A stretch of DNA of 64,000 nt from Caldimonas sp. KR1-144 (GCF_049446155.1 NZ_JBMSEE010000005.1:140315-204314), one strand, 5' to 3'; positions 3,205-39,430 are shown, counted from the first letter of the stretch. Made by a program: numbers and translations. Notes: generated by a model from the letters alone, not told the origin.

Positions 3205-3308
3205 GTCGGGCAGGGGGCGAGCCGCGGGGCGCAAAGGGTAGCGCAGGAGTAAGCTGGGATCGACGCGCTCAATGGCTCTCGAGCGCGAGATTTGTCAGGA
3301 GACTCGCG

Positions 3309-3908: not shown

Positions 3909-4046
3909 GCAATTCCCGGCTTGGCCGCGCCGCCAGGCGAACTGGCGGCGCGGCGTGGCGCTTTTCACGCTCTTGGCACCGCTGCGGGGCGCCTATCGTT
4001 CCATCACGCCGGATGTCCGTGATGCGGCGTGAAAGAAGTACCCGCC

Positions 4047-4298: not shown

Positions 4299-4459
4299 GC
4301 GCCCGGCGCCTCGCCCCACCCCTCGTTCGCGCGGGCGGTTTGACCGCCTCCGGCTTGCGGCTTTCCTGAGCGCGCGGGTGCCCGGTGCACGCGCGTTTCA
4401 GTGCGGTCGACGCGGCTATGGTCCGCGGCTGTCGATCCAGCCCGCCGCCGCGCGCCGCC

Positions 4460-4690
4460 ATGAACCCGGACCGCCTCCGCCTCGAACCGCACATCTTCCT
4501 CGCCGAGACGTCCGCGCCATCGGCCCCATCGGCTGCAACCGACGAGGTCGCGACCGAATGGGCCGACACGGTGCCGGCCGACTTCACCCTCCTGATCGAC
4601 CACGGCGCGACCGCCAGCATGCCGCTCGACGGCCTGGAGATCCGCGAGCTCGACGACAGCGGGCTGTTCCGCCACTTCTTCCCGAGCTGA
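4460..4690 (+). CDS. small hypothetical protein, paralog B (C-terminal FRHFF motif)
   Basis: Start uncertain (ATG 4460, ATG 4418 or GTG 4385, all in frame). Sequence ends ...TVPADFTLLIDHGATASMPLDGLEIRELDDSGLFRHFFPS. Shares the (W)xxT(M/V)PAD and RE(V/L)xDxx(V/L)FRHFF motifs with the ORF at 4047. Confidence 0.5.
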   Translation: MNPDRLRLEPHIFLAETSAPSAPSAATDEVATEWADTVPADFTLLIDHGATASMPLDGLEIRELDDSGLFRHFFPS

Positions 4691-4942
4691 GCCCGCCGCC
4701 GCAGGGCGGCCGGCCGCACCACGCCGCACCAGCAAAGAAAAAGCCCGGGCGCCTTGCGGCGACCGGGCTCTCCTTTTATTCCCTGAGCGGTCTTCTTGAA
4801 AGCCGCGCGAGGCTACGCGAGCGCGTGCCTTCGCGCCTCCTCCGGCTTGTGGAGGCCTGTCGCGCGCGTGGCAGGCTCGCGCGCAGCGGCGCGCGATGAT
4901 GCGCAGCTCGTCGATCCCGAGCCCATCATCAGGAGACCCGCC

Positions 4943-6478
<1,536 letters not shown>

Positions 6479-6606
6479 GCCGGCGAGACCCTCGCCCCAA
6501 CCCTCACCCGCGCGCGGGAGAGGGAGAGGGAGCAAGGTCCTGGCACGAGAGAAGGAACTCCCTCGCCCCCTTCAGGGGGAGAGGGCCGGGGTGAGGGGGC
6601 GGCCCC
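6479..6606. repeat. cluster of REP-like GC-rich palindromic repeats between convergent genes
   Basis: ccctcacccgcgcgcgggagagggagaggg and ccctcgcccccttcagggggagagggccggggtgaggggg are imperfect palindromes of the form CCCTCNCCC...GGGAGAGGG. A related copy occurs at 14467-14494. Confidence 0.5.
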
Positions 6607-7305
6607 TCAAGCGCCCAGATACGCCGGCTTCGCCGTCGACAGGCTGCCCTTGACCTGGCGCGTCACCTCGTCGATCAGGATCTCCTCCTGACCGGCCTCC
6701 ACGCCGTCGAGCGCGATGCGCGCCACGTCCGCCGCCGAGGTCTTGGGCGCGCTGACGTGCGCGGCCATCTCGGTGTCGATGAAGGCCGCATGCAGGCCGA
6801 CCACGTGCGTGCCCTGCGCGCGCAGTTCATGGCGCAGGCCGTTGGTCAGCGCCCAGGCGGCCGACTTCGAGACGCTGTAGGCCCCGGTGGTCGGCAGGCT
6901 CAGCCAGCTCAGCGCCGACAGCATGTTGACCAGCGCGCCGCCGCCGTTGGCCGCGAGCGCCGGCGCGAACGCGCGCGAGATCGCCAGCGGTCCGAACAGG
7001 TTGGTCTCGAGCTGGCGGCGCAGCGCGTCTTCGCCGTCGGCGTCGAGCAGCGCCGGCGCCAGCGCGATGCCGGCGTTGTTGATGACGAGGTTCACGTCGC
7101 CGGCCGCACGCGCCGCGGCGGCGATGTCGTCGGCGTTCGTGACGTCGAGCTTGAGCGGAACCACGCCGTCGAGCGTGATCGTCTTCGGGTCGCGCGCGGC
7201 GGCGTAGACCTTATTCGCGCCGCGAGCGAGCAGCGCTTGCGCGAAGGCGAGGCCGAGGCCGCGGTTGGCACCGGTGACGAGGGCGATGGAACCTTGGATC
7301 TTCAT
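6607..7305 (-). CDS. SDR family oxidoreductase
   Basis: 232 aa from MKIQGSIALVTGANRGLGLAF (TGxxxGxG). Contains the YSVSK catalytic motif. AGGAG SD. Confidence 0.85.
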   Translation of the reverse strand: MKIQGSIALVTGANRGLGLAFAQALLARGANKVYAAARDPKTITLDGVVPLKLDVTNADDIAAAARAAGDVNLVINNAGIALAPALLDADGEDALRRQLETNLFGPLAISRAFAPALAANGGGALVNMLSALSWLSLPTTGAYSVSKSAAWALTNGLRHELRAQGTHVVGLHAAFIDTEMAAHVSAPKTSAADVARIALDGVEAGQEEILIDEVTRQVKGSLSTAKPAYLGA

Positions 7306-7419
7306 GGCTTGCTCCTGAGATGAGGGGACGATGTGCCGAAGGGGAGACGCTTGTATGACGATCGTCATATCTCTGGGCGAGCCGTTCGGCACGGTGCGTC
7401 CAACGTCGGAAGAACGGGT

Positions 7420-8001
7420 CTAGAGCGCGGCCTGGCGCGCCAGCTTGCCGGCGGCCTGGCGCACCGCGGTGGAGAAGGCCGGATCGTCGGACGCGCGGGC
7501 GATCACCATCGCGCCGACCAGGCAGCTGAGGATGGCCAGGGCCCGCTCGTCGTTGCCGGGACGGCGCCAGCCCGGCAGCTGGCGCTCGACCAGGTCGGCC
7601 ATCTCCTTCATGCGCTGCGTCGCCGCGCGGCGCACCGGCTCGGCCTGGCGCGGCACCTCGCTGCCCAGGGCCGCGATCGCGCAGCCCTGCTCGGGCGCGG
7701 CCAGGTGGGCATCGGACAGGTAGGCGTCGATCAGCGTGTCGAGCGCGGCCGCGGGCTGGGCCGCCGCCAGCAGCCGGCCCAGGCCTTCGATGCCTTCGGC
7801 ACCGGCGCGGTCGGCCGCCTCGGCCAGCAGGTCGGTCTTGGAACCGAAATGGGCGTAGAAGCCGCCGTGCGTGAGCCCGGCTTCCTTCATCAGGCTGGCG
7901 ACGCCGAGGCCGTCGTAGCCGTGCTGGCGGATCGCGCGCGCCGCGGTGCGCACGATGCGATCGTGCGTCTCTTCCTTGCGGGTCGGGCTGTCGGTGGCCA
8001 T
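7420..8001 (-). CDS. TetR/AcrR family transcriptional regulator
   Basis: 193 aa. N-terminal HTH region RIVRTAARAIRQHGYDGLGVASLMKEAGLTHGGFYAHFGSK. Confidence 0.85.
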   Translation of the reverse strand: MATDSPTRKEETHDRIVRTAARAIRQHGYDGLGVASLMKEAGLTHGGFYAHFGSKTDLLAEAADRAGAEGIEGLGRLLAAAQPAAALDTLIDAYLSDAHLAAPEQGCAIAALGSEVPRQAEPVRRAATQRMKEMADLVERQLPGWRRPGNDERALAILSCLVGAMVIARASDDPAFSTAVRQAAGKLARQAAL

Positions 8002-8097
8002 CGCGGCGGCTCCAGGCTTTGTATGACGGTCATCATACGCGCTCGGCACCGCCGCGGCCCGCGGGTAAATCCATCGCCGCGATAGGGGCGCCCAGGC

Positions 8098-11000
8098 TCA
8101 GTCCACCTCGACCTTGACCAGGTTGTCGTCCGAGTTGCGGTTGATGCGCTTGTTGTACGGATCGACGCCGACCCAGGCCGGCGCCTGCGCGGTCACGATG
8201 CGGATCTGCTGCGCGCCGCTCCTGAGCGGCTGGCGCTCGAACAGCAGCACCGCGTCCGCGCCGAAGCCGCGCTCGCCCGGCTTGAGGCTGAACGCGCCGA
8301 CGTCGAAGGCCTCGTCCAGCGGCGCCTCGGTCTCCTTGCCCTGGCCGTCGGCGTAGAGCTTGCGCGCCTGCACGTCGAGCACGACATCGAACTTGCCGTC
8401 GGCCCGCTTGGCGGCACGGGCCTTCGTGACCTTGACGTCGAGCAGCGTGATCTTCTCGAACAGGTCGTCGATCAGCGCATCGTGCTGCGGCCCGGCCTCG
8501 GCGCGCAGGATGTTCAGGAAGTCGCGCGAGTTGGGGTAGGGCGCGGGCTTGAATGCGTACTGCTGCAGCAGCCTGGCGAGCGAGCGGTTGACGACCTCTT
8601 CGCCGACCACCTCCTTGAGCCAGTACATCGCCAGCGTCCCCTTCTGGTAATGGATGTACTGCTGGTTCTCCACGCGCGCGAGCGGCAGCTCCTCGACGAC
8701 CTCGGCGCCGCGCGAGCGCAGGTAGCGGTCGAGCTCGTACTTCAGGAAGCGGCGCATCTGCTCGCGCCCATACATGCGCTCCATCACCAGCAGCGCCGAA
8801 TACTGCGCAAAGCTCTCGATCAGCATCGTCGCGCCCTGCTGGTCGCCCGAGACCACCTGGTGCCCCCACCACTGGTGCGCGATCTCGTGCGCGGTGACGT
8901 AGGTGACCAAGTCGATCTTGGTCGGATCGGTCAGGTGCGAGATGAAGCCGAGGTTCTCGGAGTAGGGAATCGTGTTGGCGAACGACTGCGCAAAGTTCGC
9001 GTAGGCCGGGAACTCGATGATGCGCGCCTGGCGGAACTGGAACGGCGAGAACGTCGCGTCGAACAGCGCCAGCGAGGCCTTCATCGCCGCGAGCATGCGA
9101 TCCACGTTGGCCTCGTGGCCGGGGTGGTGGTAGACCGCGAGCGCGACCTCCTTGCCGGCGGGCGACTTCCACGCGTCGCGCTTGATCTCGTAGCGCGCCG
9201 ACTGCACCGAGAAGAAGTGATTGATCGGCGCGTCGGTCTTGAAGCGCACGGTGCGGCGGCCGTTGGCGGTGGTGTCGCTTTGCGTGTAGCCGGGCGCGAC
9301 GGGCACCTGGTCGGCATCGGTGGTCACCGTGATCTCGGCATCGACCCAGTCGCTGTCGGCGCGCAGCCCGTTGCGCGCACGGCCGCGCTCGTCTTCGAGC
9401 TTGGGCGGACGCAGGTCGGGCGGCAGGCCGTGCTTGCGGCGTTTGGCGCGGTCGGTCAACAGGCCCTCGCGGCTCATGCCGATGAAAGGCGTGATCTCGG
9501 TGTTGTCGATGAAGCTGCCGTTGGCGACGATGCGGGTGAGCGGCGCGCCGTTGGCAAAGCCGCGCTCCTCGAGGGTGCTGACGAAGCCGAGCTCGCGCGC
9601 CTCGCCCGGCTGCAGGGCCGGCTGCAGCTTGTAGATGCGGTAGTGCAGGTCGGTGTCGTCGTGCTCGAGCGTGGCGCCGGGGAAATCGAGCGCGTCGAGG
9701 CGCAGGCGGTCGGAGTAGTTGATGTGCAGCGTGTCGATCGGCGCGCCGCTGCGGTTCTCCAGCCGGTAGCGCCCGCGCGTGACGGCGCGCGCTTCGCGCG
9801 GGTAGAGCTGCACGTCGAGCGTGACCGCCGTGACGCGCGGCTGCGCGAGCGTCTCGTACTGCAGGTACTGCTTCTCGAAGCGCGCGGTGCGCGCGTCGCG
9901 CTCGTCCTGCGTCTCGTAGCGGTTGAGGACATTGGTGTTGTAGAAGATGAAGGCGCCGCTGGCCACCGTCGCGACGACACCCAGGCCCAGCAGGCCGAGC
10001 GCCGGGCCGTGCAGGCGGCGGCGCAGCTGCGGTGCGCGCGCGCGCAGCGTGGCCAGCGCGCCGCGGCGCCACAGCGCGTAGGCCAGCACCGCGAGCACCA
10101 GCGCGAAGGCGCTCCAGTAGAACTGGAACCAGGCCTGGCCGATCCAGAAGCGGCCCATGCCGTTCATGTCGGACAGCGGCACGGGTGGCGTGCCGGCGTA
10201 GTCGTAGAGATGGTGCTCGTAGCCGGCCGAACTCAGCGCGACCGAGGCGACGATGTACAGCAGCATCACGCCCCAGCCGATGAACTTCTGCGGCACCAGC
10301 ACCTGCACGATGACCGACAGCACCGCGATCTGCAGCGCCGCGATCGTCATCGGCAATGCGAACCACAGCAGGTAGCTGCCGAGCTCGAAGCGGAACCAGC
10401 CCTTGATCGCCTGCACCAGCACGCCGGTGAGCACCGCGACAACCGCGCAGGCCGCCAGCACCAGCGTGATCGCGACGATCTTCGGCACGAGGTGCGCCCA
10501 GTCGGGCGCCGCGGTGGCGTCAACGATCTCGTGCATGCGCCGATCGCGGTCGCGCCACACCAGCTCGCCGGCGTAGAAGATCGCGATGACGATCGGCATG
10601 ATCGTGAACGCGCCGTTGAGCGCCTGCACCATCAGCCGCGTGACCGGGTACGAGCCGCTGCCGTACCACTCGCCGGTGTTCCAGAGCGCACCGAAGGCAT
10701 TGAGCACGCCGATGCCCAGCAGCACGAAGAACGCGGGGCTGCGGAACACGAAGGCCATGTCGAAGCGCGCGAGCCGCCACAGTTGCGACCAGCGCGTCGC
10801 GCGGTCGGCGCGCGCGGTGGGCAGCGCGCCGCGGCGCGGGGCGGGCGGTGCGTCGGCCTCGTCGGCCTTCTCGGCGCGGCCTGCGCCGGCGCTGCCGCGC
10901 GACTCGAAGCGAAACAGCCGATAGGCCAGCGCGAACAGCACGACCGCAACGCCGGTCCACAGCAGCCGGTTGGCCAGCAGCAGACCCGACAGCGGCGGCA

Positions 11001-27566: not shown

Positions 27567-28058
27567 ATGGACGCCCGCGACGACGCGCTGACCCTGCTCT
27601 ACGACGCGGCCTGTCCGGTCTGTTCGCTCGAGATGGACCACCTGCGCGAGCGCGACGCGGCCGGGCGGCTGCGCTTCGTCGACATCGCCGCGCCGGGCTT
27701 CGACGCCGCGGCCTGGGGCACGACGCGCGAAGCGCTGGACGCCGAGATCCACGGCTTTCGCGCCGACGGCAGCGTCGTGCGCGGCCTCGAGGCGCTGCGC
27801 CTGGCCTATGCCGCGGTCGGCCTGGGCCGGGTGCTGCGGCCCACCGGCTTCGGCCCGCTGAGGCCGATGGCCGACCTGGCCTACCGCGCCTTCGCACGGC
27901 ATCGGCGCGCGATCTCGCGCACCGCAGCGCCGCTGATCGACGCGTTGCGTGCGCGTCGGGCGCGCCGCGTGGCCGAGCGCATGTCGCGCTGCCGCGCCGG
28001 TGCGTGCGGCCTCGGCGGCGACGCAGCACGCTGCAACGGGAAGGGAGAAACATCGTGA
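27567..28058 (+). CDS. thiol-disulfide oxidoreductase DCC family (DUF393)
   Basis: N-terminal LLYDAACPVCSLEMDHL CxxC-type motif. 163 aa. Confidence 0.75.
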   Translation: MDARDDALTLLYDAACPVCSLEMDHLRERDAAGRLRFVDIAAPGFDAAAWGTTREALDAEIHGFRADGSVVRGLEALRLAYAAVGLGRVLRPTGFGPLRPMADLAYRAFARHRRAISRTAAPLIDALRARRARRVAERMSRCRAGACGLGGDAARCNGKGETS

Positions 28059-29425
28059 AAGTCCTCGTCTGCGGCTCCACCGGCTGCGTCGGCCAGGCCG
28101 TCGTGCGCGCGCTGCGCTCGCGCGGCCACGAGGTCGTCGAGGGTGCGCGCAGCGCGCGTGACGGCGACCGCTCGATGCAGGTCGACTTCATGCGCGAGCG
28201 CACGCCCGAGGCGTGGGCGGCGCGGCTGTCGGCGCGCGGCGTCGACGCGGTCGTCAACTGCGTCGGCATCCTGATGGCCTCGCGCACGCAGAGCTTCGAA
28301 CGCGTGCACGCCGCCGGCCCGATCGAGCTGTTTCGCGGCGCGGCCCGGGCCGGCGTGCGCCGCGTCGTGCAGATCTCGGCGCTCGGCGTCGGCGACGACG
28401 CCGACAGCCTCGCGATGCCCTACCTGCGCAGCAAGCTGCTGGCCGACGAATCGCTCGCCGCGCTGCCGCTGGACTGGACCGTGCTGCGACCCGCGCTGGT
28501 CTACGGTCCGCGAAGCCAAAGCGCGGCGCTGTTCGCCACGCTCGCGAGCCTGCCGGTCATCAGCCTGCCCGGCGGCGGCACGCAGCGGCTGCAGCCGATC
28601 CACGTCTTCGAGCTGGCCGAAGCCGTCGCGCGCCGTATCGAGGACGACACGCCGCATCGCGAGGTGCTGGAGCTCGGCGGCGCCGACGTGCTGAGCTACC
28701 GCGAGATGCTCGCGCGCTATCGCGACGCGCTCGGACTCGGCGAGGCACTGTGGTTGCCGCTGCCGATGCTGCTGATGAAGCTGGCCGGCTGGCTGGCCGA
28801 AGCGCTGCCGCAGAAGGTGTTCTGCCGCGACACGATGCGCCTGCTCGAGCGCGGCAGCGTGCCGGCGCGCAACGCGGCCGCGGCCTTGCTGGGCCGCGCG
28901 CCGACCGCGTTCGCGCAAGGCCTCGCGATCACGCGGCCCGAGGCGATGCTCAACCTGCGCGTCGAGCTCAGCCCACCCGTGGCGGCGCTGATGCGCGCCT
29001 CGCTGGCCTTCATGTGGCTCTACACCGCCCTCGTCAGCGCGCTGCTGCGCGACGCCTCGGGCGTGATGGCGCTGCTGGCGCGCTGCGGCTTCGAAGGCGA
29101 TGCCGGCATCGCGGCCCTGGTCTTTTCCTGCACGCTCAATACGGCGCTGGGCCTGATGGTGCTGATGCGGCCCTCGGCACGGGTCTATGCGCTGCAAAGC
29201 GCGGCCATCGTCGGCTACACCGTCACGGCGGCCGTGCGCATGCCCGAGCTGACGATCGACCACTGCGGTCCGCTGGTGAAGAACCTGCCGATGCTCGCGG
29301 CGGTGCTGACGCTGTGGCTCGCACACCGCGCCCCAAAAGAACAGGGGCGTCCATTTCGCGATGAACGCCCCATCATGAAAGGCCTCGCAGTGAGGCTCAA
29401 CCCTTCACGCACACCACCTGCTTGA
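28055..29425 (+). CDS. NAD(P)H-binding SDR-like reductase fused to C-terminal DoxX-like 4-TM domain
   Basis: GTG coupled start (GTGA). Rossmann motif VLVCGSTGCVGQAVVRAL. The C-terminal ~130 aa are hydrophobic and DoxX-like. Confidence 0.7.
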   Translation: MKVLVCGSTGCVGQAVVRALRSRGHEVVEGARSARDGDRSMQVDFMRERTPEAWAARLSARGVDAVVNCVGILMASRTQSFERVHAAGPIELFRGAARAGVRRVVQISALGVGDDADSLAMPYLRSKLLADESLAALPLDWTVLRPALVYGPRSQSAALFATLASLPVISLPGGGTQRLQPIHVFELAEAVARRIEDDTPHREVLELGGADVLSYREMLARYRDALGLGEALWLPLPMLLMKLAGWLAEALPQKVFCRDTMRLLERGSVPARNAAAALLGRAPTAFAQGLAITRPEAMLNLRVELSPPVAALMRASLAFMWLYTALVSALLRDASGVMALLARCGFEGDAGIAALVFSCTLNTALGLMVLMRPSARVYALQSAAIVGYTVTAAVRMPELTIDHCGPLVKNLPMLAAVLTLWLAHRAPKEQGRPFRDERPIMKGLAVRLNPSRTPPA

Positions 29426-30614
29426 GCGTGTGCGCCACTTCCACCAGGTCGCGCTGCGCGGCCATCACGGCGTCGATGTCCTTGTAGGCCGCGGGCGTCT
29501 CGTCGATGACGTCCTTGTCCTTGCGGCACTCGACGCCTTCGGTCGCGGCGCGGTGGTCGGCCAGCGTGAAGCGACGCTTGGCTTCGCCGCGGCTCATCGT
29601 GCGGCCGGCGCCGTGCGAGCACGACTCGAACGACTGCGCGTTGCCCTTGCCGCGCACGATGTAGCTGCGCGCGCCCATGCTGCCGGGAATGATCCCCAGC
29701 TCGCCGGCCTTGGCGCTCACCGCGCCCTTGCGGGTCACGTAGACCTCCTCGCCGAAGTGGCGTTCCTTCTGCACGTAGTTGTGGTGGCAGTTCACCGCCT
29801 CGACGTGGCTCTGGAAGCTCTTGTGGATCACCGTCTTGGCGGCCTCGATCACGCGCTTCATCATCACCTCGCGGTTGATGCGCGCGAACTGCTGGGCCCA
29901 GCCGACCGCGCGCACGTAGTCGCCGAAGTAGCGGCTGCCTTCCTCGAAGTAGGCGAGGTCGCGGTCGGGCAGGTTGGCCTGATGGCGCATCGCGTCCTGC
30001 TTGGCCAACTCGATGAACATCGTGCCGATGGCGTTGCCGACGCCGCGCGAGCCCGAGTGCAGCATGAACCAGACGAAGCCGGCTTCGTCGAGGCAGACCT
30101 CGATGAAGTGATTGCCCGTGCCCAGCGTGCCGAGGTGCTGGATGTGGTTGGTCTTGGCCAGCTTGGGGTAGTCGCGGCACAGCTCGGTGAACCCGGGCTC
30201 GAGCTGCGCCCAGGCCGTGTTCACCGAGCCGGGCGGCTTCTGCCACGCGCCCGGATCGCGCGGGCCCGGTGAGCGCCCGTGCGGCACCGCGCGCTCGATC
30301 GCCGCGCGCAGCGGGCCGAGGTTGTCGGGCAGGTCCTCGGCCGTCAGCGTGGTCTTGCAGGCGATCATCCCGCAGCCGATGTCCACGCCCACGGCCGCCG
30401 GGATGATGGCCTTGAGCGTGGGAATCACCGAGCCGACGGTCGCGCCGATGCCGAAGTGGACGTCGGGCATCGCGGCGATGTGCTTGAAGACGATGGGCAG
30501 GCGCGCCGCGTTGATCAACTGGCGCTTGGCCGCGTCTTCGACCGGCACGCCCTGCGTCCACATCTTCAGCGGCACGCCGCCGGGGACGTCTTCGTGGATG
30601 TAGTTGGTTCCCAT
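29397..30614 (-). CDS. rtcB: RNA-splicing ligase RtcB
   Basis: 405 aa. Metal-binding H/C motifs (PDVHFGIGATVG, GNHF, CSHGAGR). Full-length RtcB architecture. Confidence 0.9.
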   Translation of the reverse strand: MGTNYIHEDVPGGVPLKMWTQGVPVEDAAKRQLINAARLPIVFKHIAAMPDVHFGIGATVGSVIPTLKAIIPAAVGVDIGCGMIACKTTLTAEDLPDNLGPLRAAIERAVPHGRSPGPRDPGAWQKPPGSVNTAWAQLEPGFTELCRDYPKLAKTNHIQHLGTLGTGNHFIEVCLDEAGFVWFMLHSGSRGVGNAIGTMFIELAKQDAMRHQANLPDRDLAYFEEGSRYFGDYVRAVGWAQQFARINREVMMKRVIEAAKTVIHKSFQSHVEAVNCHHNYVQKERHFGEEVYVTRKGAVSAKAGELGIIPGSMGARSYIVRGKGNAQSFESCSHGAGRTMSRGEAKRRFTLADHRAATEGVECRKDKDVIDETPAAYKDIDAVMAAQRDLVEVAHTLKQVVCVKG

Positions 30615-30632
30615 GTCGGTTCCTTCATGGCG

Positions 30633-31376
30633 TCACTGCACGCATCCTCGTCGCGCAGCGTCCGCATAGTCCTTGAGTTCCTGATCGGCCTTGTCGATCG
30701 AGCGGATGAACGCCTCGACGATGCGATCGATGATGTCTTGTCGCTCGAGATGGCGACCGCAATGGCCGATGCCGTGCAGCGCCGCCACTTGGACCTCGCG
30801 GCAGGGCACGTCCAGCATCTCGCGCAGCACCTGCCAGACGGCGTCGCGCCAGCGGGGCTCGTGCCGCACGTTCCAGAACGTGGGCCACACGTCGAACCAC
30901 ATGTAGCAGACGTAGGCCAGCCGGCCCGTCGTGGTGCCGATCGGCACCCGCAGCGACGCCAGCCTCGGCCCGATGCACTGTCGCCAGAGCATCGGCATGG
31001 CCCGCATCATGCGCATGGCTTCGTCAAGCGCAACGCTTGCATCGATGGCCGCGAACGGCACGTTGCTGACGGCGTTGCTCATCACGTAATTGAGCCCCAT
31101 GCCGACCTGTTCGTCGCCGAAGGGCGCGAGATCGATCCCGGCCCGGGCGAAGAGAACGGTCTGGATCCGCGTCCACTCCAAAGGTGTCGCTTCGAAGTCG
31201 GGCTCGTCGATGTTCCAGTACCACTCCTGATCATGGGTTTGTGGCACCGGTCGATCGAATAGATAGCGCAGCGCCGCTTCGTAGCGTTGCGGCGCGAGGC
31301 CCACGCCTTGCGGGCTCCAGTCCGGCGCTTGTGCGACGCGGCGGCGCTGTGCGCGCGTCTGTCGGCTGTTCATCAT
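30633..31376 (-). CDS. hypothetical Trp-rich protein (247 aa) between SPFH gene and rtcB
   Basis: GGAAGGAAG SD. WYWNIDEPDFEATPLEWTRI...VWPTFWNVRHEPRWRDAVWQ. No recognisable domain. Confidence 0.6.
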   Translation of the reverse strand: MMNSRQTRAQRRRVAQAPDWSPQGVGLAPQRYEAALRYLFDRPVPQTHDQEWYWNIDEPDFEATPLEWTRIQTVLFARAGIDLAPFGDEQVGMGLNYVMSNAVSNVPFAAIDASVALDEAMRMMRAMPMLWRQCIGPRLASLRVPIGTTTGRLAYVCYMWFDVWPTFWNVRHEPRWRDAVWQVLREMLDVPCREVQVAALHGIGHCGRHLERQDIIDRIVEAFIRSIDKADQELKDYADAARRGCVQ

Positions 31377-31432
31377 GTTCTTCCTTCCGAGAAGGGCCCC
31401 GCCGGTAGCAAGCCGGCGGGGCAGGCCACGCG

Positions 31433-32569
31433 TCAGCGTAGCTTCACGAGCCCGTTGAGCACCTGGTCCAGGCCGCCGAACACCGAGATCTTGTCGATGC
31501 GTTCGGCCACCCGTTCCAGCGTCTCCAGCTCCTTCAGACGCAAGGCGGTGGGGTTGTCTTCCATCACCTTGGCCGTGTTGAGCAGCGAGCGCGTCGCGGC
31601 GGTTTCTTCGCGACGACGGATCACGTTGGCCTCGGCCGCCTTGCCGGCCTCGACCACCTGGGCGAGGATGGTCTTCATCTCGCCCGGCAGCACGATGTCC
31701 TTCAGGCCGGCGCTGTCGAGCGCGAGGCCGTAGGCCTCGAGCTTGGCGCGCACATGAGCGGTCACGACCTCGTCAATCACCGTCTTGTTCTCCAGCAGCT
31801 CGTCGAGCGTGCGGGTGCCCACCGCGGCGCGCAGCGCGAACTGCAGCTCGCGGTACAGGTGTTCGGCGGGCTTGTTCAGCGCCGTAAAGGCCGCGAGCAC
31901 GTCGGTGTAGCGGAAAGTGGCCGACAGGTTCAGGCGCAGCCCGACCTTGTCGCGGGTCAGGATCTCCTGGCCCGTCACCTCCACCGCCTGCAGTCGCAGG
32001 TCGACCAGCTCGACCGACACGTTGCGGTTGAACTTCCAGAACGCGTACGAGCCCGACGCGAGCACGCGCTCGGCCTTGCCGTCGACCGACAGCACGCCGG
32101 CGCCGGATTGCGGCACCTGCACCTGCAGCACGCCGGCCAGGCCCGTCACCGCGCGCGGGCGCAGCTGGGTCTGGATCAGTCGCGCGACCACGGGCGCCGG
32201 CACCTCGGCGGTCTCGGCGATGTCGATCACCTCGACGGCCACGTCGACCAGGCCCTTCCAGTACAGGCGCCGCGCGCCCGGCGGCAGCAGCTCGACCAGC
32301 ACGCCGTTCTCGCTGCGCAGGCCAACCTGGGTCTCGCCGAGCTCGACGCGCACGAACTCGGCCTCGACCACCTCGGGCTCCTTGGCCAGCAGGTAATCGG
32401 CGAGGCCGTGCGCGAAGGCCGGCTGTTCGAGCGCAAAGGTCTCGACACGCAGCGCGTCGAAGCCGTCGAACAGCCAGTGCGTGCCGGGCTGCAGCACGCG
32501 TTCGAAATCGCCGTTGCGCAGCAGCAGGCCGCGCTCGTTCTTCTTGACGGTGACACGCTTGAGCTTCAT
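31433..32569 (-). CDS. SPFH/band-7 domain protein (soluble, with ~200 aa N-terminal extension)
   Basis: AGGAG SD. The C-terminal half carries the band-7 core (ILTRDKVGLRLNLSATFRYTDV...AGLKDIVLPGEMKTILAQVVEAG). No TM helix. Confidence 0.8.
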   Translation of the reverse strand: MKLKRVTVKKNERGLLLRNGDFERVLQPGTHWLFDGFDALRVETFALEQPAFAHGLADYLLAKEPEVVEAEFVRVELGETQVGLRSENGVLVELLPPGARRLYWKGLVDVAVEVIDIAETAEVPAPVVARLIQTQLRPRAVTGLAGVLQVQVPQSGAGVLSVDGKAERVLASGSYAFWKFNRNVSVELVDLRLQAVEVTGQEILTRDKVGLRLNLSATFRYTDVLAAFTALNKPAEHLYRELQFALRAAVGTRTLDELLENKTVIDEVVTAHVRAKLEAYGLALDSAGLKDIVLPGEMKTILAQVVEAGKAAEANVIRRREETAATRSLLNTAKVMEDNPTALRLKELETLERVAERIDKISVFGGLDQVLNGLVKLR

Positions 32570-32825
32570 GGGAGTTCTCCTTCTTTGAAAGCGTGTGGTT
32601 GGAATGGGTGCCGTTACAGCCGCGGCCGCGGACGACGAGTGCCTGGGCCCCGCAGCCACGCTGCGCCTCGGCGGGGTCCGCGTCGGATGCCGCCTCGGCT
32701 GGTCGTGGACGAGAAGCCCCGCGTGCTCGGCGCACGGGCGGCCGCCGCTGATGGGCCGGGGCGTTGCGCCTGGCGGCGCGCGGCCTTCGGCCCACGTTCG
32801 GCGGGTGGTCTTGCGACCGTTCTTG

Positions 32826-32896
32826 GGTTGGAGCGGGATTCGAACCCGCGACAGACGAATTGAGGATTCGTTGCTCTTCCGCTGAGCTAACCAACG
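32826..32896 (-). tRNA. degenerate tRNA-like gene (anticodon loop UCCUCAA, reads CUC/Glu; C33; mismatched acceptor termini)
   Basis: Good D arm (GCUC/GAGC) and T arm (GCGGG-UUCGAAU-CCCGC). Acceptor stem has C1.C72 and U7.U66 mismatches. Confidence 0.35.
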
Positions 32897-32897
32897 T

Positions 32898-32967
32898 TGG
32901 CAGTGATGCCGGGAGTCGAACCCGGACCCTTGCGGGATCCCTCTTCATCACTCGGGTGTGCATCGCT
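32898..32967 (-). ncRNA. truncated mini tRNA-like element (acceptor stem + T arm + CCA, central GNRA-capped hairpin instead of D/anticodon arms)
   Basis: AGUGAUG...GGGAUCCC-GCAA-GGGUCC-GGG-UUCGACU-CCCGG-CAUCACU-G-CCA. 55 nt from a perfect 7-bp acceptor; 70 nt if the outer AGCGAUG is used. Confidence 0.4.
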
Positions 32968-33102
32968 TCCGGCAGGGCGGCATGGACGGCGGCGACGCGC
33001 CTTGTTCACGAGACGCGGCCGCCGCCCACCGGCGGGGTTCACGAACCCCTGGGCCTGTGAGCCTTTGCCTTCGACGACGAACGCTTGTGCGCCGGGCTTC
33101 GA

Positions 33103-33678
33103 TCACCCCAGGCGCGATCCTTTCGGCAGGCGCGCGGCCAGCCACTCGTGCACGTCGGCGCGGATGTGCCGGCCTTCGAGCAGAAAGGCCTCGAAGCGGC
33201 TCGGCACGTACGGCAGGTACAGCAGCGGCATGCCCGCTTCCTCCGGCGTGCGGTCGGCCTTGCGGCCGTTGCACGCGCGGCAGGCCGTGACGAGGTTCAT
33301 CCAGGCCCAGCCGCCGCCGCGCGACTGCGGAACGATGTGCTCGCAGGTCAGCGCGCGATCGTCGAAGCGCTGGCCGCAGTACGCGCAGGTGTGGCGGTCG
33401 CGGCGAAACAGCTTGGCGCGACCGAACGCCGGCGCGGCATCGAACAGGTTGATGCGCGGCGCGCCACGCAGCGCGACGATCGGATGCACGTCGATCAGCG
33501 ACTGGCGGCCGCGCGCGACATTGAAGCCGCCGCGCAGCGTGGCCAGCGGACCGTCGCCGTCGACCCACGCCACCGCGCCCGTGGCCACGTGAACGGCCGC
33601 CTGCTCGAGCGAGATCCACGCGTGCGGCGTGCCCTGGATGTCGAGTTGCAGCACGTGGCTGTGGTGTCGTTGGTGCAT
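33103..33678 (-). CDS. HNH endonuclease (191 aa)
   Basis: AGGAGG SD. Motif CAYCGQRFDDRALTCEHIVPQSRGGGWAWMNLVTACRACNGRK (C-x2-C...H...N...C-x2-C). Embedded in the tRNA array. Confidence 0.85.
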   Translation of the reverse strand: MHQRHHSHVLQLDIQGTPHAWISLEQAAVHVATGAVAWVDGDGPLATLRGGFNVARGRQSLIDVHPIVALRGAPRINLFDAAPAFGRAKLFRRDRHTCAYCGQRFDDRALTCEHIVPQSRGGGWAWMNLVTACRACNGRKADRTPEEAGMPLLYLPYVPSRFEAFLLEGRHIRADVHEWLAARLPKGSRLG

Positions 33679-33723
33679 CGGTGGCCTCCTTTCACGGGCC
33701 GTTGTGTGCGTGTTTGATGAACG

Positions 33724-33799
33724 TGGCTGCGGCGGCTGGATTCGAACCAGCGTGCACCGGGTCAAAGCCGGTTGTCTGAGGCCCCTCGACGACGCCGCA
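33724..33799 (-). tRNA. tRNA-Gln (UUG)
   Basis: Manual cloverleaf. Anticodon loop CUUUGAC. T arm CUGG-UUCGAAU-CCAG. CCA encoded. Confidence 0.75.
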
Positions 33800-33815
33800 T
33801 CGAATGTGGATGGAT

Positions 33816-33900
33816 TGGTCCCCTCGGTCCGAGTCGAACGGACATGCCTTGCGGCGCCGGCTTCTGAGACCGGTGCGTCTTCCTGTTTCGCCACGAGGGG
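33816..33900 (-). tRNA. tRNA-Leu (CAG), type II
   Basis: 85 nt with long variable arm. Anticodon loop CUCAGAA. CCA encoded. Confidence 0.75.
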
Positions 33901-33918
33901 TTGTGATGCGCGCTTGGG

Positions 33919-33990
33919 GGTGGCCGGCCGGAATCGAACCGACATCGGCGGGGTCACGGCCCGCAGCCCTGCCATTGAGCGACGGTCACC
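33919..33990 (-). tRNA. tRNA-His (GUG) with G-1/C73, non-canonical anticodon loop CCGUGAC (C33) and A4.C69 mismatch
   Basis: G-1 and C73 His identity elements are present. Anticodon GUG. Leader and trailer extend the acceptor helix by about 11 bp (gcgcttggggg / cccccaagcgc). Confidence 0.65.
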
Positions 33991-34004
33991 CCCAAGCGCG
34001 TGGG

Positions 34005-34080
34005 TGGTCTCGGCGGCAGGGCTCGAACCTGCGACCTCATGCTCCCGAAGCACGTGCGCTGCCAGCTGCGCTACGCCGAG
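34005..34080 (-). tRNA. tRNA-Pro (CGG)
   Basis: Anticodon loop UUCGGGA. Canonical arms. CCA encoded. Confidence 0.75.
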
Positions 34081-34087
34081 ATGGGGG

Positions 34088-34166
34088 TGGTACCCCGTGC
34101 ACGACTCGAACGTGCGACCTCCGGCTTCGTAGACCGGCGCTCTTCAATCCGCTGAGCTAACGAGGT
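34088..34166 (-). tRNA. tRNA-Arg (ACG)
   Basis: Anticodon loop CUACGAA. 11-nt D loop. CCA encoded. Confidence 0.7.
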
Positions 34167-34176
34167 CGGGAACGAC

Positions 34177-34252
34177 TGGCGCCTCGTGCGGGAATCGAAC
34201 CCGCGGCTTCCGGCTAGACAGGCCGGCACTCTGGCCGCTGAGTTAACGAGGC
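34177..34252 (-). tRNA. tRNA-Asp (GUC) with unusual U37 (loop CUGUCUA)
   Basis: Canonical acceptor, D and T arms. Position 37 is a pyrimidine. Confidence 0.65.
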
Positions 34253-34262
34253 ACGATGAAAC

Positions 34263-34337
34263 TGGTGGAGGCGACAGGCATCGAACCTGCGACCCGCTGC
34301 TTGCAAAGCAGCCGCTCTACCGCTGAGCTACACCCCC
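34263..34337 (-). tRNA. tRNA-Ala (UGC)
   Basis: G3.U70 identity pair. Anticodon loop UUUGCAA. CCA encoded. Confidence 0.8.
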
Positions 34338-34445
34338 AGGGAAATGAATGCCATCCGGTGACGGATTCCGGCGCCGCCCAATCGTTGCGGCCGGTTTCCA
34401 CCCTCGAAGCGCGAGCTCGACGAGGGCTTCTGGTTGTTGAGTGAT

Positions 34446-34521
34446 TGGCATCGCGTGCGGGAATCGAACCCGCGTTCCCGGAATGAAAGCCCGGTGTCCT
34501 CGGCCACTAGACGAACGCGAC
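34446..34521 (-). tRNA. tRNA-Glu (UUC)
   Basis: GUCGCGUUCGUCUAGUGGCC...CUUUCAU..., close to the bacterial tRNA-Glu consensus. CCA encoded. Confidence 0.8.
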
Positions 34522-34545
34522 GTGGTCATGCCTTGATTGCTCGAG

Positions 34546-34689
34546 GCTCACTTCGGCTGTGCCCGCCGCGCGAGCATCCCGTCGGATGAGGTGTCTCGCT
34601 GCACGTGGCCCGGGCCCGGGCCGCGCACATCCCGCTCGCCCACACCAGGTTCGCGCGGCTGCGGAGTGCGAGGACACACCCGAAGTGAG
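34546..34689. repeat. 11-bp inverted repeat (gctcacttcgg / ccgaagtgagc) bracketing a ~120-bp GC-rich spacer between tRNA-Glu and tRNA-Gly
   Basis: Seen directly. The distal arm abuts the tRNA-Gly 3' end. The spacer contains cccgggcccggg. Confidence 0.3.
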
Positions 34690-34759
34690 CGGATGACGAG
34701 GTTCGAACTCGTGGCCTCGACCATGGCGTGGTCGCGCTCTGCCAGCTGAGCTACATCCG
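34687..34759 (-). tRNA. tRNA-Gly (GCC) with non-canonical anticodon loop ACGCCAU (C33)
   Basis: Perfect acceptor, D and T arms. Discriminator U. CCA not encoded. Confidence 0.65.
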
Positions 34760-34923
34760 CATTTTTTGCAAGCTCGCGCGCCGGCCAGTACCGGCGGCTG
34801 CTTGCGGCAAGTTGTGAAAGAGCAGGGCCACCGTTGCCGGTGGGGCCGTCCCAGGGAGAAGGCCTGTGCGCGGCCGCCGGCCGCGCATCGGGTGAAGTAG
34901 GTCGTTTCGAGGGCATAAAGCGA

Positions 34924-34956
34924 AGAGGCCCGGTTCCTCTCGGAATCCGGGCCTCT
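34924..34956. terminator. strong hairpin (10-bp GC stem agaggcccgg/ccgggcctct, 13-nt loop), terminator-like, upstream of tRNA array promoter region
   Basis: Seen directly. On the minus strand it is followed by UUCGCUUUAUG. Confidence 0.35.
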
Positions 34957-35179
34957 GCGTACAGAGCGTGGAGGGCGCGCGCCTAGGCGCCGTCCTCTCC
35001 CGGAGACAAGGGATCCTCGCTGCCGCCATTGCGGCCCATTGCCTGCGCGAGGTGCGCGCACGCCTGGCCACCAAAGGCGGCTGCGGCGTGAAGGGCATTG
35101 GGTCGATAAAGCACGATGGATCTCTGTGAATGGAATCGGTTGAATTCGAGCGAGGCTCTTTCGAGCGACAGGCGGAACT

Positions 35180-35194
35180 GTAAAGAGTCTTTAC
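35180..35194 (+). promoter_or_regulatory. 7-1-7 palindrome GTAAAGA-G-TCTTTAC in low-GC region upstream of XRE regulator gene
   Basis: Seen directly. Lies in a ~190-bp AT-richer segment. Confidence 0.3.
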
Positions 35195-35259
35195 TGCGTC
35201 GTCAAGCGGCGGCGACAATCGCATTCGCTTCGTTGCAACGGATCCGCGCTTTCTCTCCA

Positions 35260-35643
35260 GTGAGCAACATCACCGTCATTCGCCGACAGAACGCGCTCGC
35301 GCTGTTCCAGGCCTGGGCCGAGGCCGCGGTCGCTGCCGGGGCCGCGCCCAAGGGACTCGAGCAGGCCTTTGCCCGCGAGCTCGAGATCTCGCCCTCGATG
35401 TGGAGCCAGATCAAGTCCTCGCGGCCGATCGGCGACAAGCTCGCGCGGCAGATCGAGCAGCACTGCGCCAAGCCCGTCGGCTGGCTCGACGAGGAGCGCG
35501 AGTCGGCCGGCCTCACCGCGGCGGAGCAGCAGTTCCTCGCGCTGGCGTTGAATGCCTGGCGCGCGACCAACAGCGCCGGTCGACGCGAACTGCGCGCTTG
35601 GCTCTCGGGCCGCGTGGCCAAGACGGACCCGCATTCGACCTAG
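35260..35643 (+). CDS. XRE-family helix-turn-helix transcriptional regulator (start uncertain; GTG 35260 or ATG 35116)
   Basis: HTH segment GLEQAFARELEISPSMWSQIKSSRPIGDKLARQIEQH matches the XRE/Cro pattern. Confidence 0.5.
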   Translation: MSNITVIRRQNALALFQAWAEAAVAAGAAPKGLEQAFARELEISPSMWSQIKSSRPIGDKLARQIEQHCAKPVGWLDEERESAGLTAAEQQFLALALNAWRATNSAGRRELRAWLSGRVAKTDPHST

Positions 35644-37513: not shown

Positions 37514-38554
37514 TCAGGCCGCCCTGGCAGCGGCTCGCGCGCTGCCGGTGCCCATCAGCGAGCGCAGCAGGTCGGGCGAGATGTTGAGTTCGCCGATCTT
37601 GTCGGCGCGCTCGGCCAGGCCGCCGAAGGCCTGCGCGATCAGCTGGCCGGGCTCCATGCCCACCGACGCGAAGGCCTGGATCACCTTCGGGTCGGCCTTC
37701 TCGAGCGCTTGCATCAGCGCGCCGACGCGGTGCGCCTCGGCCTCGGCCAGCGCGCGCGTGTTCTCGGCCTGGCTGGCGACGAGCTGCTTGCGCTCGTCCT
37801 CGAGCGCAATGCTCGAACGCATGTCGGCCTGCGCAAGCCGGGCCTTCTTGTCCTGGATGCTGGCCTCGGTTTCCACCTCGGTCTCGCGGATCGTGCGCTT
37901 CTTGCGCTCGACGGCGATCTCGGTCTCCAGCTCGCTCTCGCGGATCTGGCGCTCGTTCTCCACCGCAGCGTTGCGGCGCAGGAAGATCGCCTCGTCGGCC
38001 GACTTGAGGATGGCCTCGCGCGCCTCGGCTTCGAGCGCGCGCGCGGTCTCCGGCGTGGGGCGCACCGCCTCGATCGCCAGGCCCAGCACCTCCAGGCCCA
38101 GCGCGGCGATTTCGGGGTGCACGGCGAGCGCGCGCAGCGCCTCGGCACCGAGCTCGTCGCCCGCCTGCAGCGCCTGGCGCAGCGCGCGGCGCTTCATGCC
38201 CTGCTGGATCAGCACGCGCAGCAGGCTCAGCACGCGTTGCGGGAGTTTTTCGGGGTCTTCGGACACGTGTCCCTTGCCGCCGGCGGCGAGCGAGAAGTCG
38301 AGCATGGCCGCGGTCTTGCGCGGCTCGCTGATGCGCCAGGTGAGCTGGCCTTGCACCGTCAGCGCCTGGAAGTCCGCCGTCATGTAGGGCTCGATGAAGT
38401 CGTCGCGGCGGCTGGCCACCGGCACCGCGACCAGCGTGCTGGTAGGCGAGAAGACGAACAGCGACAAGCCTGCGCCTTCACGCACCAGCTTTCCGCCGCG
38501 GAACTGCATCAGGTAGGTGGTCGGGGGCGTCTTGATGTATCGGAAGCCGAGCAT
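37514..38554 (-). CDS. SPFH/band-7 domain protein (soluble, coiled-coil C-terminus)
   Basis: AAGGAG SD. YIKTPPTTYLMQFRGGKLVREGAGLS and the flotillin-like EA-rich coiled coil. Confidence 0.8.
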   Translation of the reverse strand: MLGFRYIKTPPTTYLMQFRGGKLVREGAGLSLFVFSPTSTLVAVPVASRRDDFIEPYMTADFQALTVQGQLTWRISEPRKTAAMLDFSLAAGGKGHVSEDPEKLPQRVLSLLRVLIQQGMKRRALRQALQAGDELGAEALRALAVHPEIAALGLEVLGLAIEAVRPTPETARALEAEAREAILKSADEAIFLRRNAAVENERQIRESELETEIAVERKKRTIRETEVETEASIQDKKARLAQADMRSSIALEDERKQLVASQAENTRALAEAEAHRVGALMQALEKADPKVIQAFASVGMEPGQLIAQAFGGLAERADKIGELNISPDLLRSLMGTGSARAAARAA

Positions 38555-38578
38555 GGCGTTTCTCCTTGGACTTGTGCC

Positions 38579-38603
38579 ACATAGTGGCTTCAGCCCACTA
38601 TGT
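38579..38603. promoter_or_regulatory. perfect 9-bp inverted repeat ACATAGTGG-N7-CCACTATGT in divergent promoter region; candidate NrtR operator
   Basis: Seen directly. Flanked by the AT-rich segment ggataatagaactaag. Confidence 0.4.
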
Positions 38604-38683
38604 AAGTTGGATAATAGAACTAAGATCGGCGGCGTCAAGGCCCGCGTTGCGCGGACCGCACCGAAACCGACCGAACGTGACCC

Positions 38684-39430
38684 ATGCCACGCCGCGTTCC
38701 TGAACCCGCCGGCGCCGTGCGCGCACCGCGCATCGAGCGGCCCTTGTGCACTGTTGACGTCGTCGTCTTCACCGTGCGCGACGAGCAGCTGTGCGCGCTG
38801 CTCGTGCAGCGGCCCGACGCGCCGGACGAGCCGTTCCCGCGGCGCTGGGCGCTGCCCGGCGGCTTCGTCGATCCCAAGGCCGACGCATCGCTCGAGGCCT
38901 GCGCGCAGCGCAAGCTGGCCGAGAAGACCGGCGTCGTGCCGCCCTACCTGGAGCAGCTGGGCAGCTGGGGCGATGGCAGGCGCGATCCGCGCGGCTGGTC
39001 GGCCACGCACGTCTACTTCACGCTGATGCCGACGACCGACGTCGTACTGACGGCCGGCGGCAACGCGGGGGAGGCGAAGTGGCTGCCGGTCGATCCGCCG
39101 TCGCGCTGGCCGGCGCTGGCCTTCGACCACCGGCGCATCCTCGAAGCGGCGGTGGAGCGCCTGCGTTCCAAGGTCGAGTACACCTCGCTCGCGGCCTATC
39201 TGCTGCCCGACGAGTTCACGCTCACCGAGCTGCAGCGCCGCTTCGAGGTCGTGCTGGGCCGTGCGATCGAGAAGAGCGCATTCCGCACGCGGATGCTGTC
39301 GGTCGACTGGCTCGAGCCGCTCGCGGCGATGCGCACCGGCAACTTCCGCCCGGCCCAGCTGTACCGGCTGAAGGCGCCGGGCGAGCTGGTGTTCTTTCCG
39401 CGGACCTTCTATGCCAAGGACGGCCGCTGA
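38684..39430 (+). CDS. Nudix hydrolase domain + C-terminal winged-helix protein, NrtR-like regulator
   Basis: Nudix box region GGFVDPKADASLEACAQRKLAEKTGV. A ~90-aa C-terminal domain is consistent with the NrtR family. Confidence 0.65.
   Translation: MPRRVPEPAGAVRAPRIERPLCTVDVVVFTVRDEQLCALLVQRPDAPDEPFPRRWALPGGFVDPKADASLEACAQRKLAEKTGVVPPYLEQLGSWGDGRRDPRGWSATHVYFTLMPTTDVVLTAGGNAGEAKWLPVDPPSRWPALAFDHRRILEAAVERLRSKVEYTSLAAYLLPDEFTLTELQRRFEVVLGRAIEKSAFRTRMLSVDWLEPLAAMRTGNFRPAQLYRLKAPGELVFFPRTFYAKDGR

Follow-up and report, generated by a model that had tools for sequence, protein, structure and literature searches.

Does an RNA ligase gene that lies behind a cluster of tRNA genes, next to an SPFH gene and a gene of no named family, belong to a module that has not been described? 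The question is raised by a 64-kb stretch of the genome of Caldimonas sp. KR1-144 (Burkholderiales, Sphaerotilaceae), here called the window, in which three adjacent genes encode a slipin of the SPFH/Band-7 family, a tryptophan-rich protein of 247 amino acids (aa) designated here U247, and an RtcB RNA ligase. An earlier note on this DNA held that the combination of an SPFH protein and an RNA repair ligase was undescribed. That claim is wrong, since RNA repair by a Band-7 protein, a tRNA associated with band 7 (b7a-tRNA), and RtcB was predicted by Burroughs & Aravind in 2016, according to the summary in 10.1101/312249, and the Pseudomonas aeruginosa slipin PaFlo8 is located within an rtc locus (PMC13086221). 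We propose instead that the three genes are probably the 3' half of a composite operon of ~5.9 kb (35205 to 29334, minus strand), which joins two known modules and has the regulator of a tRNA array in place of RtcR. Module A would be the Band-7/b7a-tRNA/RtcB cassette, here with a mini tRNA-like element, a slipin devoid of a transmembrane segment, and U247 as an extra component in Burkholderiales. Module B would be a tRNA array of the long type, mobile by horizontal transfer and accompanied by an HNH endonuclease gene and a divergent CI-like repressor, Rep175. According to this proposal, module B took the place of RtcR in Sphaerotilaceae, and module A stands beside a divergent RtcR gene in Comamonadaceae.

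Conservation of the locus in related genomes

One genome per species was scanned for relatives, which yielded 48 U247 loci, and the neighbours within 10 kb on either side of each locus were mapped using tblastn and ARAGORN. RtcB was detected near U247 in 40 of the 48 loci, SPFH in 36, RtcR in 33, RtcA in 29, RlaP in 23, Rep175 in 9, and Ro60/Rsr in 4. Ro60/Rsr takes the SPFH slot in four loci that lack SPFH, and SPFH and RtcB occur together in at least 34 related loci. Because U247 is found within 10 kb of RtcB in so many loci, fortuitous adjacency was ruled out, and the triad is a real co-oriented unit that is syntenic in many genomes.

Loci of the Comamonadaceae type, found in Acidovorax, Vandammella, Allofranklinella, Rhodoferax, Polaromonas, and Variovorax, have the order RtcR (divergent), tRNA-like RNA, slipin or Ro60/Rsr, U247, in some cases a 273-aa hypothetical protein, RtcB, RlaP, and RtcA, the last two being usual and not constant. 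The Sphaerotilaceae-type loci of the window, Piscinibacter, Pelomonas, Roseateles, and Aquabacterium have the order Rep175 (divergent), variable tRNA array, HNH, tRNA-like RNA, slipin, U247, and RtcB. The order of array, HNH, b7a, and slipin recurs in 12 further array-type loci (L001, L004, L007, L008, L009, L012, L013, L031, L046, and L058 to L060). RtcR is absent from every array-type locus but that of Rhodoferax (L031), which holds both blocks, the array block being downstream, not upstream, of a complete RtcR-type operon.

With RtcR in the locus of 33 of the 48 relatives and RtcA in 29 as well, the U247 family is, for most genomes, a standard accessory of Rtc loci, and the window is a derivative in which the regulator has been swapped. 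U247 has no named family and represents a lineage-specific addition to the repair cassette in Burkholderiales.

RtcR-type operons also showed another hypothetical protein of ~270 aa with the Cys-rich sequence LDVCLACCMDE, which recurs in 11 of the 48 loci and whose gene separates those of U247 and RtcB (for example, L021:10774-11595 and L049:9132-9941). It had no match in Pfam and is absent from the window.

Organization of the unit in the window

The three open reading frames (ORFs) are co-directional, as had been noted earlier, and are located on the minus strand (Table 1). They are separated by spacers of 56 nt and then 18 nt, and a purine-rich Shine-Dalgarno (SD) sequence precedes each of them (AGAAGGAG, GGAAGGAAG, and GAAGGAA). 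Directly upstream and in the same orientation are, nearest first, an ARAGORN call of "tRNA-Glu(CUC)," the HNH gene, and nine tRNA genes, giving ten tRNA calls in all. When positions 29300 to 35400 were scanned, a sigma70-like promoter ahead of the array was the sole promoter-like site, and the sole strong minus-strand terminator was the one after RtcB, with no terminator predicted between the array and RtcB. With one promoter, one terminator, and an order that recurs in the 12 other loci, read-through co-transcription of the triad with the array, as suggested in the earlier note, is plausible.

The GC-rich hairpin in the slipin-U247 spacer was not called as a terminator, and a smaller hairpin that follows it pairs with part of the U247 SD sequence. 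These spacer hairpins (31370 to 31432) may act in processing, in stability, or in the control of translation.

RtcR, RtcA, Rsr, and RlaP gave no tblastn match anywhere in the 64-kb window, which bears out the reported lack of rtcR and rtcA at this site. Archease had no match among the window ORFs scanned against Pfam, no archease-directed search being made.

RtcB and slipin

The ligase is a full-length RtcB, as had been claimed, with matches to PF01139 (E value, 1.4e-127) and PHROG 1075 (E value, 2e-142). The motifs DIGCGM, GNHF, HSGSRG, CHHNY, and SHGAGR are all readable, and both the metal-binding and the His-GMP motifs are present. It aligns to the PDB structures of Thermus thermophilus TTHA1785, Pyrococcus horikoshii PH1602, and human RtcB. 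With 163.6 bits against the Escherichia coli-type equivalog model (NCBIfam PRK09588; cut-off, 407), the window RtcB is below the threshold and is nearer to the archaeal, Thermus, and human type than to the E. coli type.

The Band_7 domain of the slipin covers residues 151 to 322 (Pfam E value, 1.4e-28), and residues 185 to 375 match stomatin structures. No hydrophobic segment was found in the slipin, the maximum Kyte-Doolittle mean over 19 residues being 1.24. The earlier description of a soluble SPFH protein of 378 aa is therefore accurate as to length and the lack of a transmembrane segment, whereas the N-terminal extension, put at ~200 aa, is about 150 to 185 aa. This N-terminal part is made up of additional copies of the lead-in beta motif of SPFH (residues 76 to 121 against 151 to 195 in hhalign; probability, 87%). 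The AlphaFold2 model of the slipin, built on a shallow alignment (at least 83% identity), was poor (predicted local distance difference test score, 45) and was used solely for the beta-rich N terminus. Across genera, the slipins share 77% to 91% identity.

tRNA-like RNAs upstream of the slipin gene

The "tRNA-Glu(CUC)" had been counted as an ordinary tRNA of the array. Alignment of this element from 19 loci points instead to a b7a-like tRNA-like RNA of the repair module: the D and T arms do not vary, the acceptor is a short and irregular stem, and the anticodon arm varies, with different 7-nt loops (read as CUC, CAU, AGU, CCU, GAU, and others) or a GNRA tetraloop. Invariant D and T arms combined with a variable anticodon arm and a short acceptor fit a "band 7-associated tRNA." In the alignment, 90.6% of the cells are paired, and double changes occur at 12 pairs. 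In the RtcR-type loci, the Rfam tRNA model matches only at positions 5 to 66, and the element is missed by ARAGORN.

Directly upstream of the b7a-type RNA is a smaller, D-armless tRNA-like element with an acceptor GTGATG/CATCAC, a GCAA-tetraloop hairpin, a T arm (CCGGGTTCGACTCCCGG), and a TGCCA end. Its T-arm hairpin was found by RNAalifold in nine loci, and the element ends in ACCA or GCCA in relatives (L017, L027, L029, and others). The Band-7-associated RNA may thus be bipartite or tandem. A conserved box, GTCG-N9-10-ATGCCGC, precedes the tRNA-like RNAs; its ATGCCGC part is common to RtcR-type and array-type loci, and the GTCG part was read by eye in a subset. The box could be a promoter or an RNA 5' end. 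No sigma54 motif was found in the 900 nt upstream of the slipin gene in the window. The same search gave a clear site in Vandammella- and Allofranklinella-type loci and, with the patterns used, no site in Acidovorax-type loci.

The tRNA array, its HNH gene, and their control region

Nine close, co-oriented tRNA genes (Gly-GCC, Glu-UUC, Ala-UGC, Asp-GUC, Arg-ACG, Pro-CGG, His-GUG, Leu-CAG, and Gln-UUG) lie within 1.04 kb. The 3' CCA is encoded in eight of them, and the first, Gly-GCC (34687 to 34760), is without it. The orthologous loci have between 0 and 20 array tRNAs. The array tRNAs of the window decode the commonest codons of a high-GC genome. Unusual tRNAs were called in two other arrays, namely, one with the 4-nt anticodon ccta in the Rhodoferax array (L031, about 8743 to 9600) and a CUA-anticodon tRNA called "Pyl" in an array of a Nostoc plasmid (L056:9065-9136); both may be suppressor-like.

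The HNH protein matched Pfam HNH_5 (E value, 7.8e-17) and PHROG 16726 (E value, 4e-26), and its gene is kept beside the array in array-type loci, although it was not detected in L031. On the conjugative megaplasmid of Methylibium PM1 (L055), the same block is represented by a full-length HNH homologue (74% identical), 27 tRNAs, and a Rep175 homologue, and neither slipin nor RtcB was found in that block. The 27-tRNA array (3221 to 8567) is interspersed with HD-domain and AlkB genes, which points to an ability of arrays to take on further nucleic-acid repair enzymes. Another full-length HNH homologue, with 32% identity, flanks a 20-tRNA array on the plasmid of Nostoc PCC 7524, and further homologues were found in jumbo phages and Gordonia phages.

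The ORF of Rep175 is listed from 35116, but its alignment to homologues begins only near residue 49, so the GTG at 35260 is taken as the start. Rep175 matched PHROG 12107, "transcriptional repressor" (E value, 1e-9), had a weak PDB match to the helix-turn-helix (HTH) of phage CI repressor (E value, 0.086), and had no match in Pfam. Its homologue is divergent beside the array in most array-type loci, as on the Methylibium megaplasmid; the exception is L046, where it is co-oriented and lies downstream.

The sequence from Rep175 to the first tRNA was aligned for nine loci, and the small ORF within it was surveyed in 13 array loci. The promoter and the palindrome that overlaps it, a putative Rep175 operator, are visible in all nine aligned loci, and the half-sites co-vary. 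The leader ORF has a homologue in 12 of the 13 loci, with a length of roughly 43 to 70 aa and a broadly conserved C terminus, which reads PGE(G/D)xA* in most loci and departs from this pattern somewhat in a few. A conserved hairpin carries the stop codon of the ORF in its loop. RNAalifold also recovered the terminator-like hairpin that follows as a consensus of the nine loci, nearly all of its 13 pairs being kept, with compensatory changes at one. Judged from this arrangement, the leader ORF and terminator may form a translation-coupled attenuator.

The genes that flank the unit in the window are ordinary chromosomal ones (CreD, a two-component system, MarR, DCC1, epimerase/DoxX, and GNAT), among which no integrase was found. 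At their 3' ends, rtcB and the convergent epimerase/DoxX_3 gene (28004 to 29425, plus strand) overlap by 29 nt (29397 to 29425). A second, longer SPFH/Band_7 protein (538 aa; E value, 9e-13) is encoded ~5 kb upstream of the operon (37514 to 39130, minus strand).

Table 1. Features of the composite locus in the window, listed from the repressor gene to the closing terminator
Feature	Position	Strand	Basis or context
Rep175, small regulator, about 127 aa	35260-35643	+	Divergent; PHROG match
Sigma70-like promoter, TTGACG-17-TACAGT	35177-35205	-	Promoter scan
Palindrome GTAAAGACTCTTTAC, overlapping the promoter	35180-35194	-	Putative Rep175 operator
Leader ORF, 43 aa, GTG start, MLYRPNALHAAAAFGGQACAHLAQAMGRNGGSEDPLSPGEDGA	34983-35114	-	Homologues in array loci
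Terminator-like hairpin AGAGGCCCGGATTCCGAGAGGAACCGGGCCTCT with U-rich tail	34916-34956	-	Between leader ORF and first tRNA
Nine tRNA genes	33724-34760	-	ARAGORN; Rfam RF00005, 46-65 bits
HNH endonuclease, 191 aa, ATG at 33678, SD GAAAGGAGG	33103-33678	-	Pfam HNH_5
Conserved box GTCG-N9-10-ATGCCGC	32977-32996	-	Precedes tRNA-like RNAs
Mini tRNA-like element, D-armless	32898-32951	-	Read from sequence
b7a-type tRNA-like RNA, ARAGORN "tRNA-Glu(CUC)"	32825-32896	-	19-locus alignment
Slipin (SPFH/Band-7), 378 aa, no transmembrane segment	31433-32569	-	Pfam Band_7
GC-rich 10-bp hairpin, slipin-U247 spacer	31396-31422	-	Folding, -33.9 kcal/mol, z -3.4
U247, 247-aa Trp-rich all-alpha HEAT/ARM-like protein	30633-31376	-	Structure model
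RtcB RNA ligase, 405 aa	29397-30614	-	PF01139
Intrinsic terminator closing the unit, 11-bp stem then TGTTCTTTTG	29334-29371	-	Terminator prediction

The 247-aa protein

U247 contains 10 tryptophan residues (4.0%) and had no match in Pfam, NCBIfam, PADLOC, or PHROGs, in agreement with its earlier description as a Trp-rich protein with no recognisable domain. The search of PDB by sequence profile returned only noise (E value, 0.45). Structure prediction, which the earlier note had proposed as a check, gave a confident HEAT/ARM-like solenoid with no similarity to catalytic domains; the model suggests that U247 is a HEAT-like solenoid and not an enzyme. Homologues numbered 281; they are "hypothetical" wherever named, and the named ones are all from Burkholderiales. 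The superfamily is broad: when 1.84 billion representatives were searched with a profile, 1,119 matched at an E value of ≤1e-3. No informative Pfam domain was present in the ten distant or fused members tested, one of which carries zf_Tbcl, and the ten that were looked up by name gave nothing informative; the superfamily therefore provides no functional lead. No relatives of U247 were found in IMG/VR viral contigs, and no description of U247 was found in the literature on RtcB with HEAT repeat, slipin, or tRNA-like RNA, a search outside which Burroughs & Aravind 2016 fell.

The slot between the slipin and rtcB genes is variable in close relatives. L058 is the orthologous chromosomal site, with the same flanking genes as the window and with a slipin and an RtcB that are 91% and 94% identical, respectively; there, U247 is replaced by a 337-aa ClpP/SDH_protease-like protein. 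The slot of L060 is similar to that of L058, that of L059 is empty, and L001 has both U247 and the ClpP-like protein and no RtcB. The ClpP-like proteins (337 to 342 aa; L058:8210-9223, L060:8538-9548, and L001:6952-7980) are unrelated to U247 in sequence (BLASTP E value, 3.8) and may be NfeD-like partners of the slipin. The variability of the slot indicates that U247 is dispensable and exchangeable, that is, a non-enzymatic accessory, and our best guess at its role is that of an adaptor.

In the spacer between the slipin and ClpP-like genes of L060 (8171 to 8466), ARAGORN made a tmRNA-like call (tag AAGKLVGEHG*), which may be a false positive or another tRNA-like structure.

Proposed function and alternative explanations

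The most likely function of the locus is a combined response to tRNA damage or translational stress, in which RtcB would carry out repair and the array would replenish or buffer the tRNAs. The identities of the components and their synteny were observed directly, and from these we infer how the unit could be regulated and what its parts could do. Rep175 would repress the sigma70 promoter via the palindrome that overlaps the -10 element, and the small leader ORF with its terminator would add a translation-dependent checkpoint. Upon tRNA damage or translational stress, the whole unit would be transcribed; the array would then replenish or buffer the tRNA pool, and RtcB would reseal breaks with 2',3'-cyclic-phosphate and 5'-OH ends. 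The slipin and the tRNA-like RNA could be a scaffold or cofactor, by analogy with what has been proposed for Ro60 with Y RNA, and U247, one of several interchangeable occupants of its slot, could be a non-enzymatic adaptor for RtcB or for the ribonucleoprotein (RNP). Co-regulation of such genes has been described for Anabaena, in which a long tRNA array responds to translation inhibitors together with rtcB and the HNH gene all8564, all of them being induced (PMC8421152), and in which TrcR, called functionally equivalent to RtcR, represses the array, all8564, rtcB, and alr0739-alr0740, the last annotated as a slipin (PMC10272220).

Several observations weigh against this proposal. Co-transcription, repression by Rep175, and attenuation are all read from the sequence. 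The conserved box and the mini element (32898 to 32996) occur in RtcR-type loci too, and the repair half of the unit could thus have an independent promoter. A search for an anti-terminator that could compete with the leader terminator gave nothing beyond a 5-bp hairpin, and the leader terminator might do no more than close a small gene of its own. The rest of the genome may hold an RtcR, RtcA, or archease gene. The closest relatives can dispense with U247, and the two genomic contexts of distant superfamily members that were examined were not near rtc genes. Finally, the slipin and U247 of the window may not be homologous to alr0740 and alr0739 of Anabaena.

Instead of a single operon, there could be two independent units that happen to be adjacent, a selfish or mobile array with its HNH gene and its own regulation, and a b7a-slipin-U247-RtcB unit transcribed from a separate promoter close to the GTCG-N10-ATGCCGC box and perhaps controlled by an RtcR from another part of the genome. 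The presence of the Rep175-array-HNH block alone on the megaplasmid, the box upstream of tRNA-like RNAs shared with RtcR-type loci, and the array block placed downstream of a complete RtcR-type operon in L031 are consistent with such a division. However, the order of array, HNH, b7a, and slipin is kept in the 12 other array-type loci, of which L031 alone has RtcR, the interval from the HNH gene to the slipin gene of the window showed no sigma70- or sigma54-like promoter, no terminator is predicted between the array and RtcB, and Anabaena co-regulates the same gene types, so that we regard two separate units as unlikely. The locus could also be the counter-defence cargo of a phage, an integrative conjugative element, or a plasmid, its tRNAs and ligase helping the element to survive anticodon-nuclease defences of the host and not forming a stress response of the host itself. 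RtcB and HNH do have strong PHROG matches, HNH homologues occur in jumbo and Gordonia phages, the array block is present on a conjugative megaplasmid, and the array content turns over quickly; this origin is nevertheless quite improbable in view of the ordinary chromosomal flanks, which are without an integrase and are the same at the orthologous L058, the lack of U247 relatives in IMG/VR viral contigs, and the sister loci, which are chromosomal and of the RtcR type.

The reading of the earlier note was that of an undescribed triad in which the protein between SPFH and RtcB is either a new partner or regulator of RtcB or a nuclease/immunity component. Its first half stands in so far as U247 is uncharacterized, with no family in the four profile libraries or PDB, and is tightly linked to RtcB, with which a role as a regulator or adaptor is compatible. 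A nuclease or immunity function is unsupported by the HEAT/ARM-like solenoid model, which has no similarity to catalytic domains, the slot holds an unrelated ClpP-like protein or nothing in close relatives, and the SPFH-RtcB association had already been described, all of which makes an undescribed triad highly improbable. A bolder version of the composite operon, conceivable although we doubt it, is a self-contained device that first detects damage to tRNAs and then mends and replaces them. Its leader would report the state of the tRNA pool or of the ribosome, and its promoter would be gated by Rep175. Fresh or decoy tRNAs would come from the array, and U247 would be a specificity or activation cofactor by which RtcB is loaded onto broken tRNAs or the slipin/tRNA-like RNP, a function comparable to that of archease or to tethering by Ro and Y RNA.

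Significance of the composite locus

The enzymes and the logic of the modules were already known, and current views are not overturned; what looks unreported is the fusion of a repair cassette to an array of spare tRNAs under another regulator. In Anabaena, the array, HNH, rtcB, and slipin are tied by co-regulation only, whereas here and in a dozen Sphaerotilaceae relatives, they are in one apparent operon. The fusion is independent evidence, from genomes, that RtcB-type repair and supernumerary tRNA arrays act in one pathway, and it offers a compact locus in a cultured bacterium for probing the pair of slipin and tRNA-like RNA. U247, the leader ORF with its terminator, and the mini tRNA-like element appear to be undescribed in the searchable literature and make three testable subjects, the first as a family of HEAT-like RtcB companions in Burkholderiales. 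If the locus were the self-contained device outlined above, U247 would define a new family of RtcB accessory proteins.

Comparison with known systems

The window appears to carry the three features expected of the predicted Band-7/b7a/RtcB system, that is, a ligase with intact motifs, an SPFH gene in the operon, and a tRNA-like RNA. RtcB adjoins the Band-7 protein, the tRNA-like RNA is directly upstream, and Ro60/Rsr replaces Band-7 in sister genomes, which matches the redundancy proposed for the two. The window differs from that system in lacking RtcR, RtcA, and RlaP, in having a HEAT-like protein between the slipin and rtcB, and in having an upstream array with HNH and a CI-like repressor, together with the D-armless mini element.

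The rtcR-rtcB-rtcA operon of E. coli, reportedly characterized by Genschik in 1998, is the canonical arrangement. With this operon and with rsr-yrlBA-rtcBA of Salmonella (Hughes 2020, PMC7790460), the window shares the ligase superfamily and presumably also the substrates, cleaved tRNA or rRNA with cyclic-phosphate ends, and RtcR, a sigma54 activator with a CARF domain, which senses tRNA halves ending in a cyclic phosphate (PMC7790460), accompanies the U247 locus in 33 of the 48 relatives. In contrast to the canonical operon, the window is without RtcR, RtcA, and a sigma54 promoter, and its RtcB is below the E. coli-type cut-off.

Slipin or stomatin genes form gene pairs with NfeD, a ClpP-like protease. 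L058, L060, and L001 are similar in that a ClpP/SDH_protease-like gene follows the slipin gene; in the window, however, the slot is taken by the unrelated U247, and the slipin is devoid of the usual membrane anchor.

The L-arrays and the TrcR regulon of Anabaena PCC 7120 resemble the window in having co-oriented tRNAs with HNH, a link to rtcB and slipin, a repressor, and a patchy distribution suggestive of horizontal gene transfer. L-type arrays (Santamaria-Gomez 2021) are expected to be silent in normal growth and induced under translational stress. The array of the window, with nine tRNAs, is short compared with the L-arrays. The Anabaena genes are dispersed and share only operator repeats and a ribbon-helix-helix (RHH) repressor, whereas the window has one promoter, a putative HTH-type repressor, and a leader ORF with a terminator. 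TrcR is of the RHH family, with TGTAGTAT-like operators; the window regulator is weakly similar to phage CI-type repressor families, with the candidate operator GTAAAGACTCTTTAC. Since Anabaena co-regulates the same gene types, the window would show them physically fused, with RtcR replaced by the regulator of the array.

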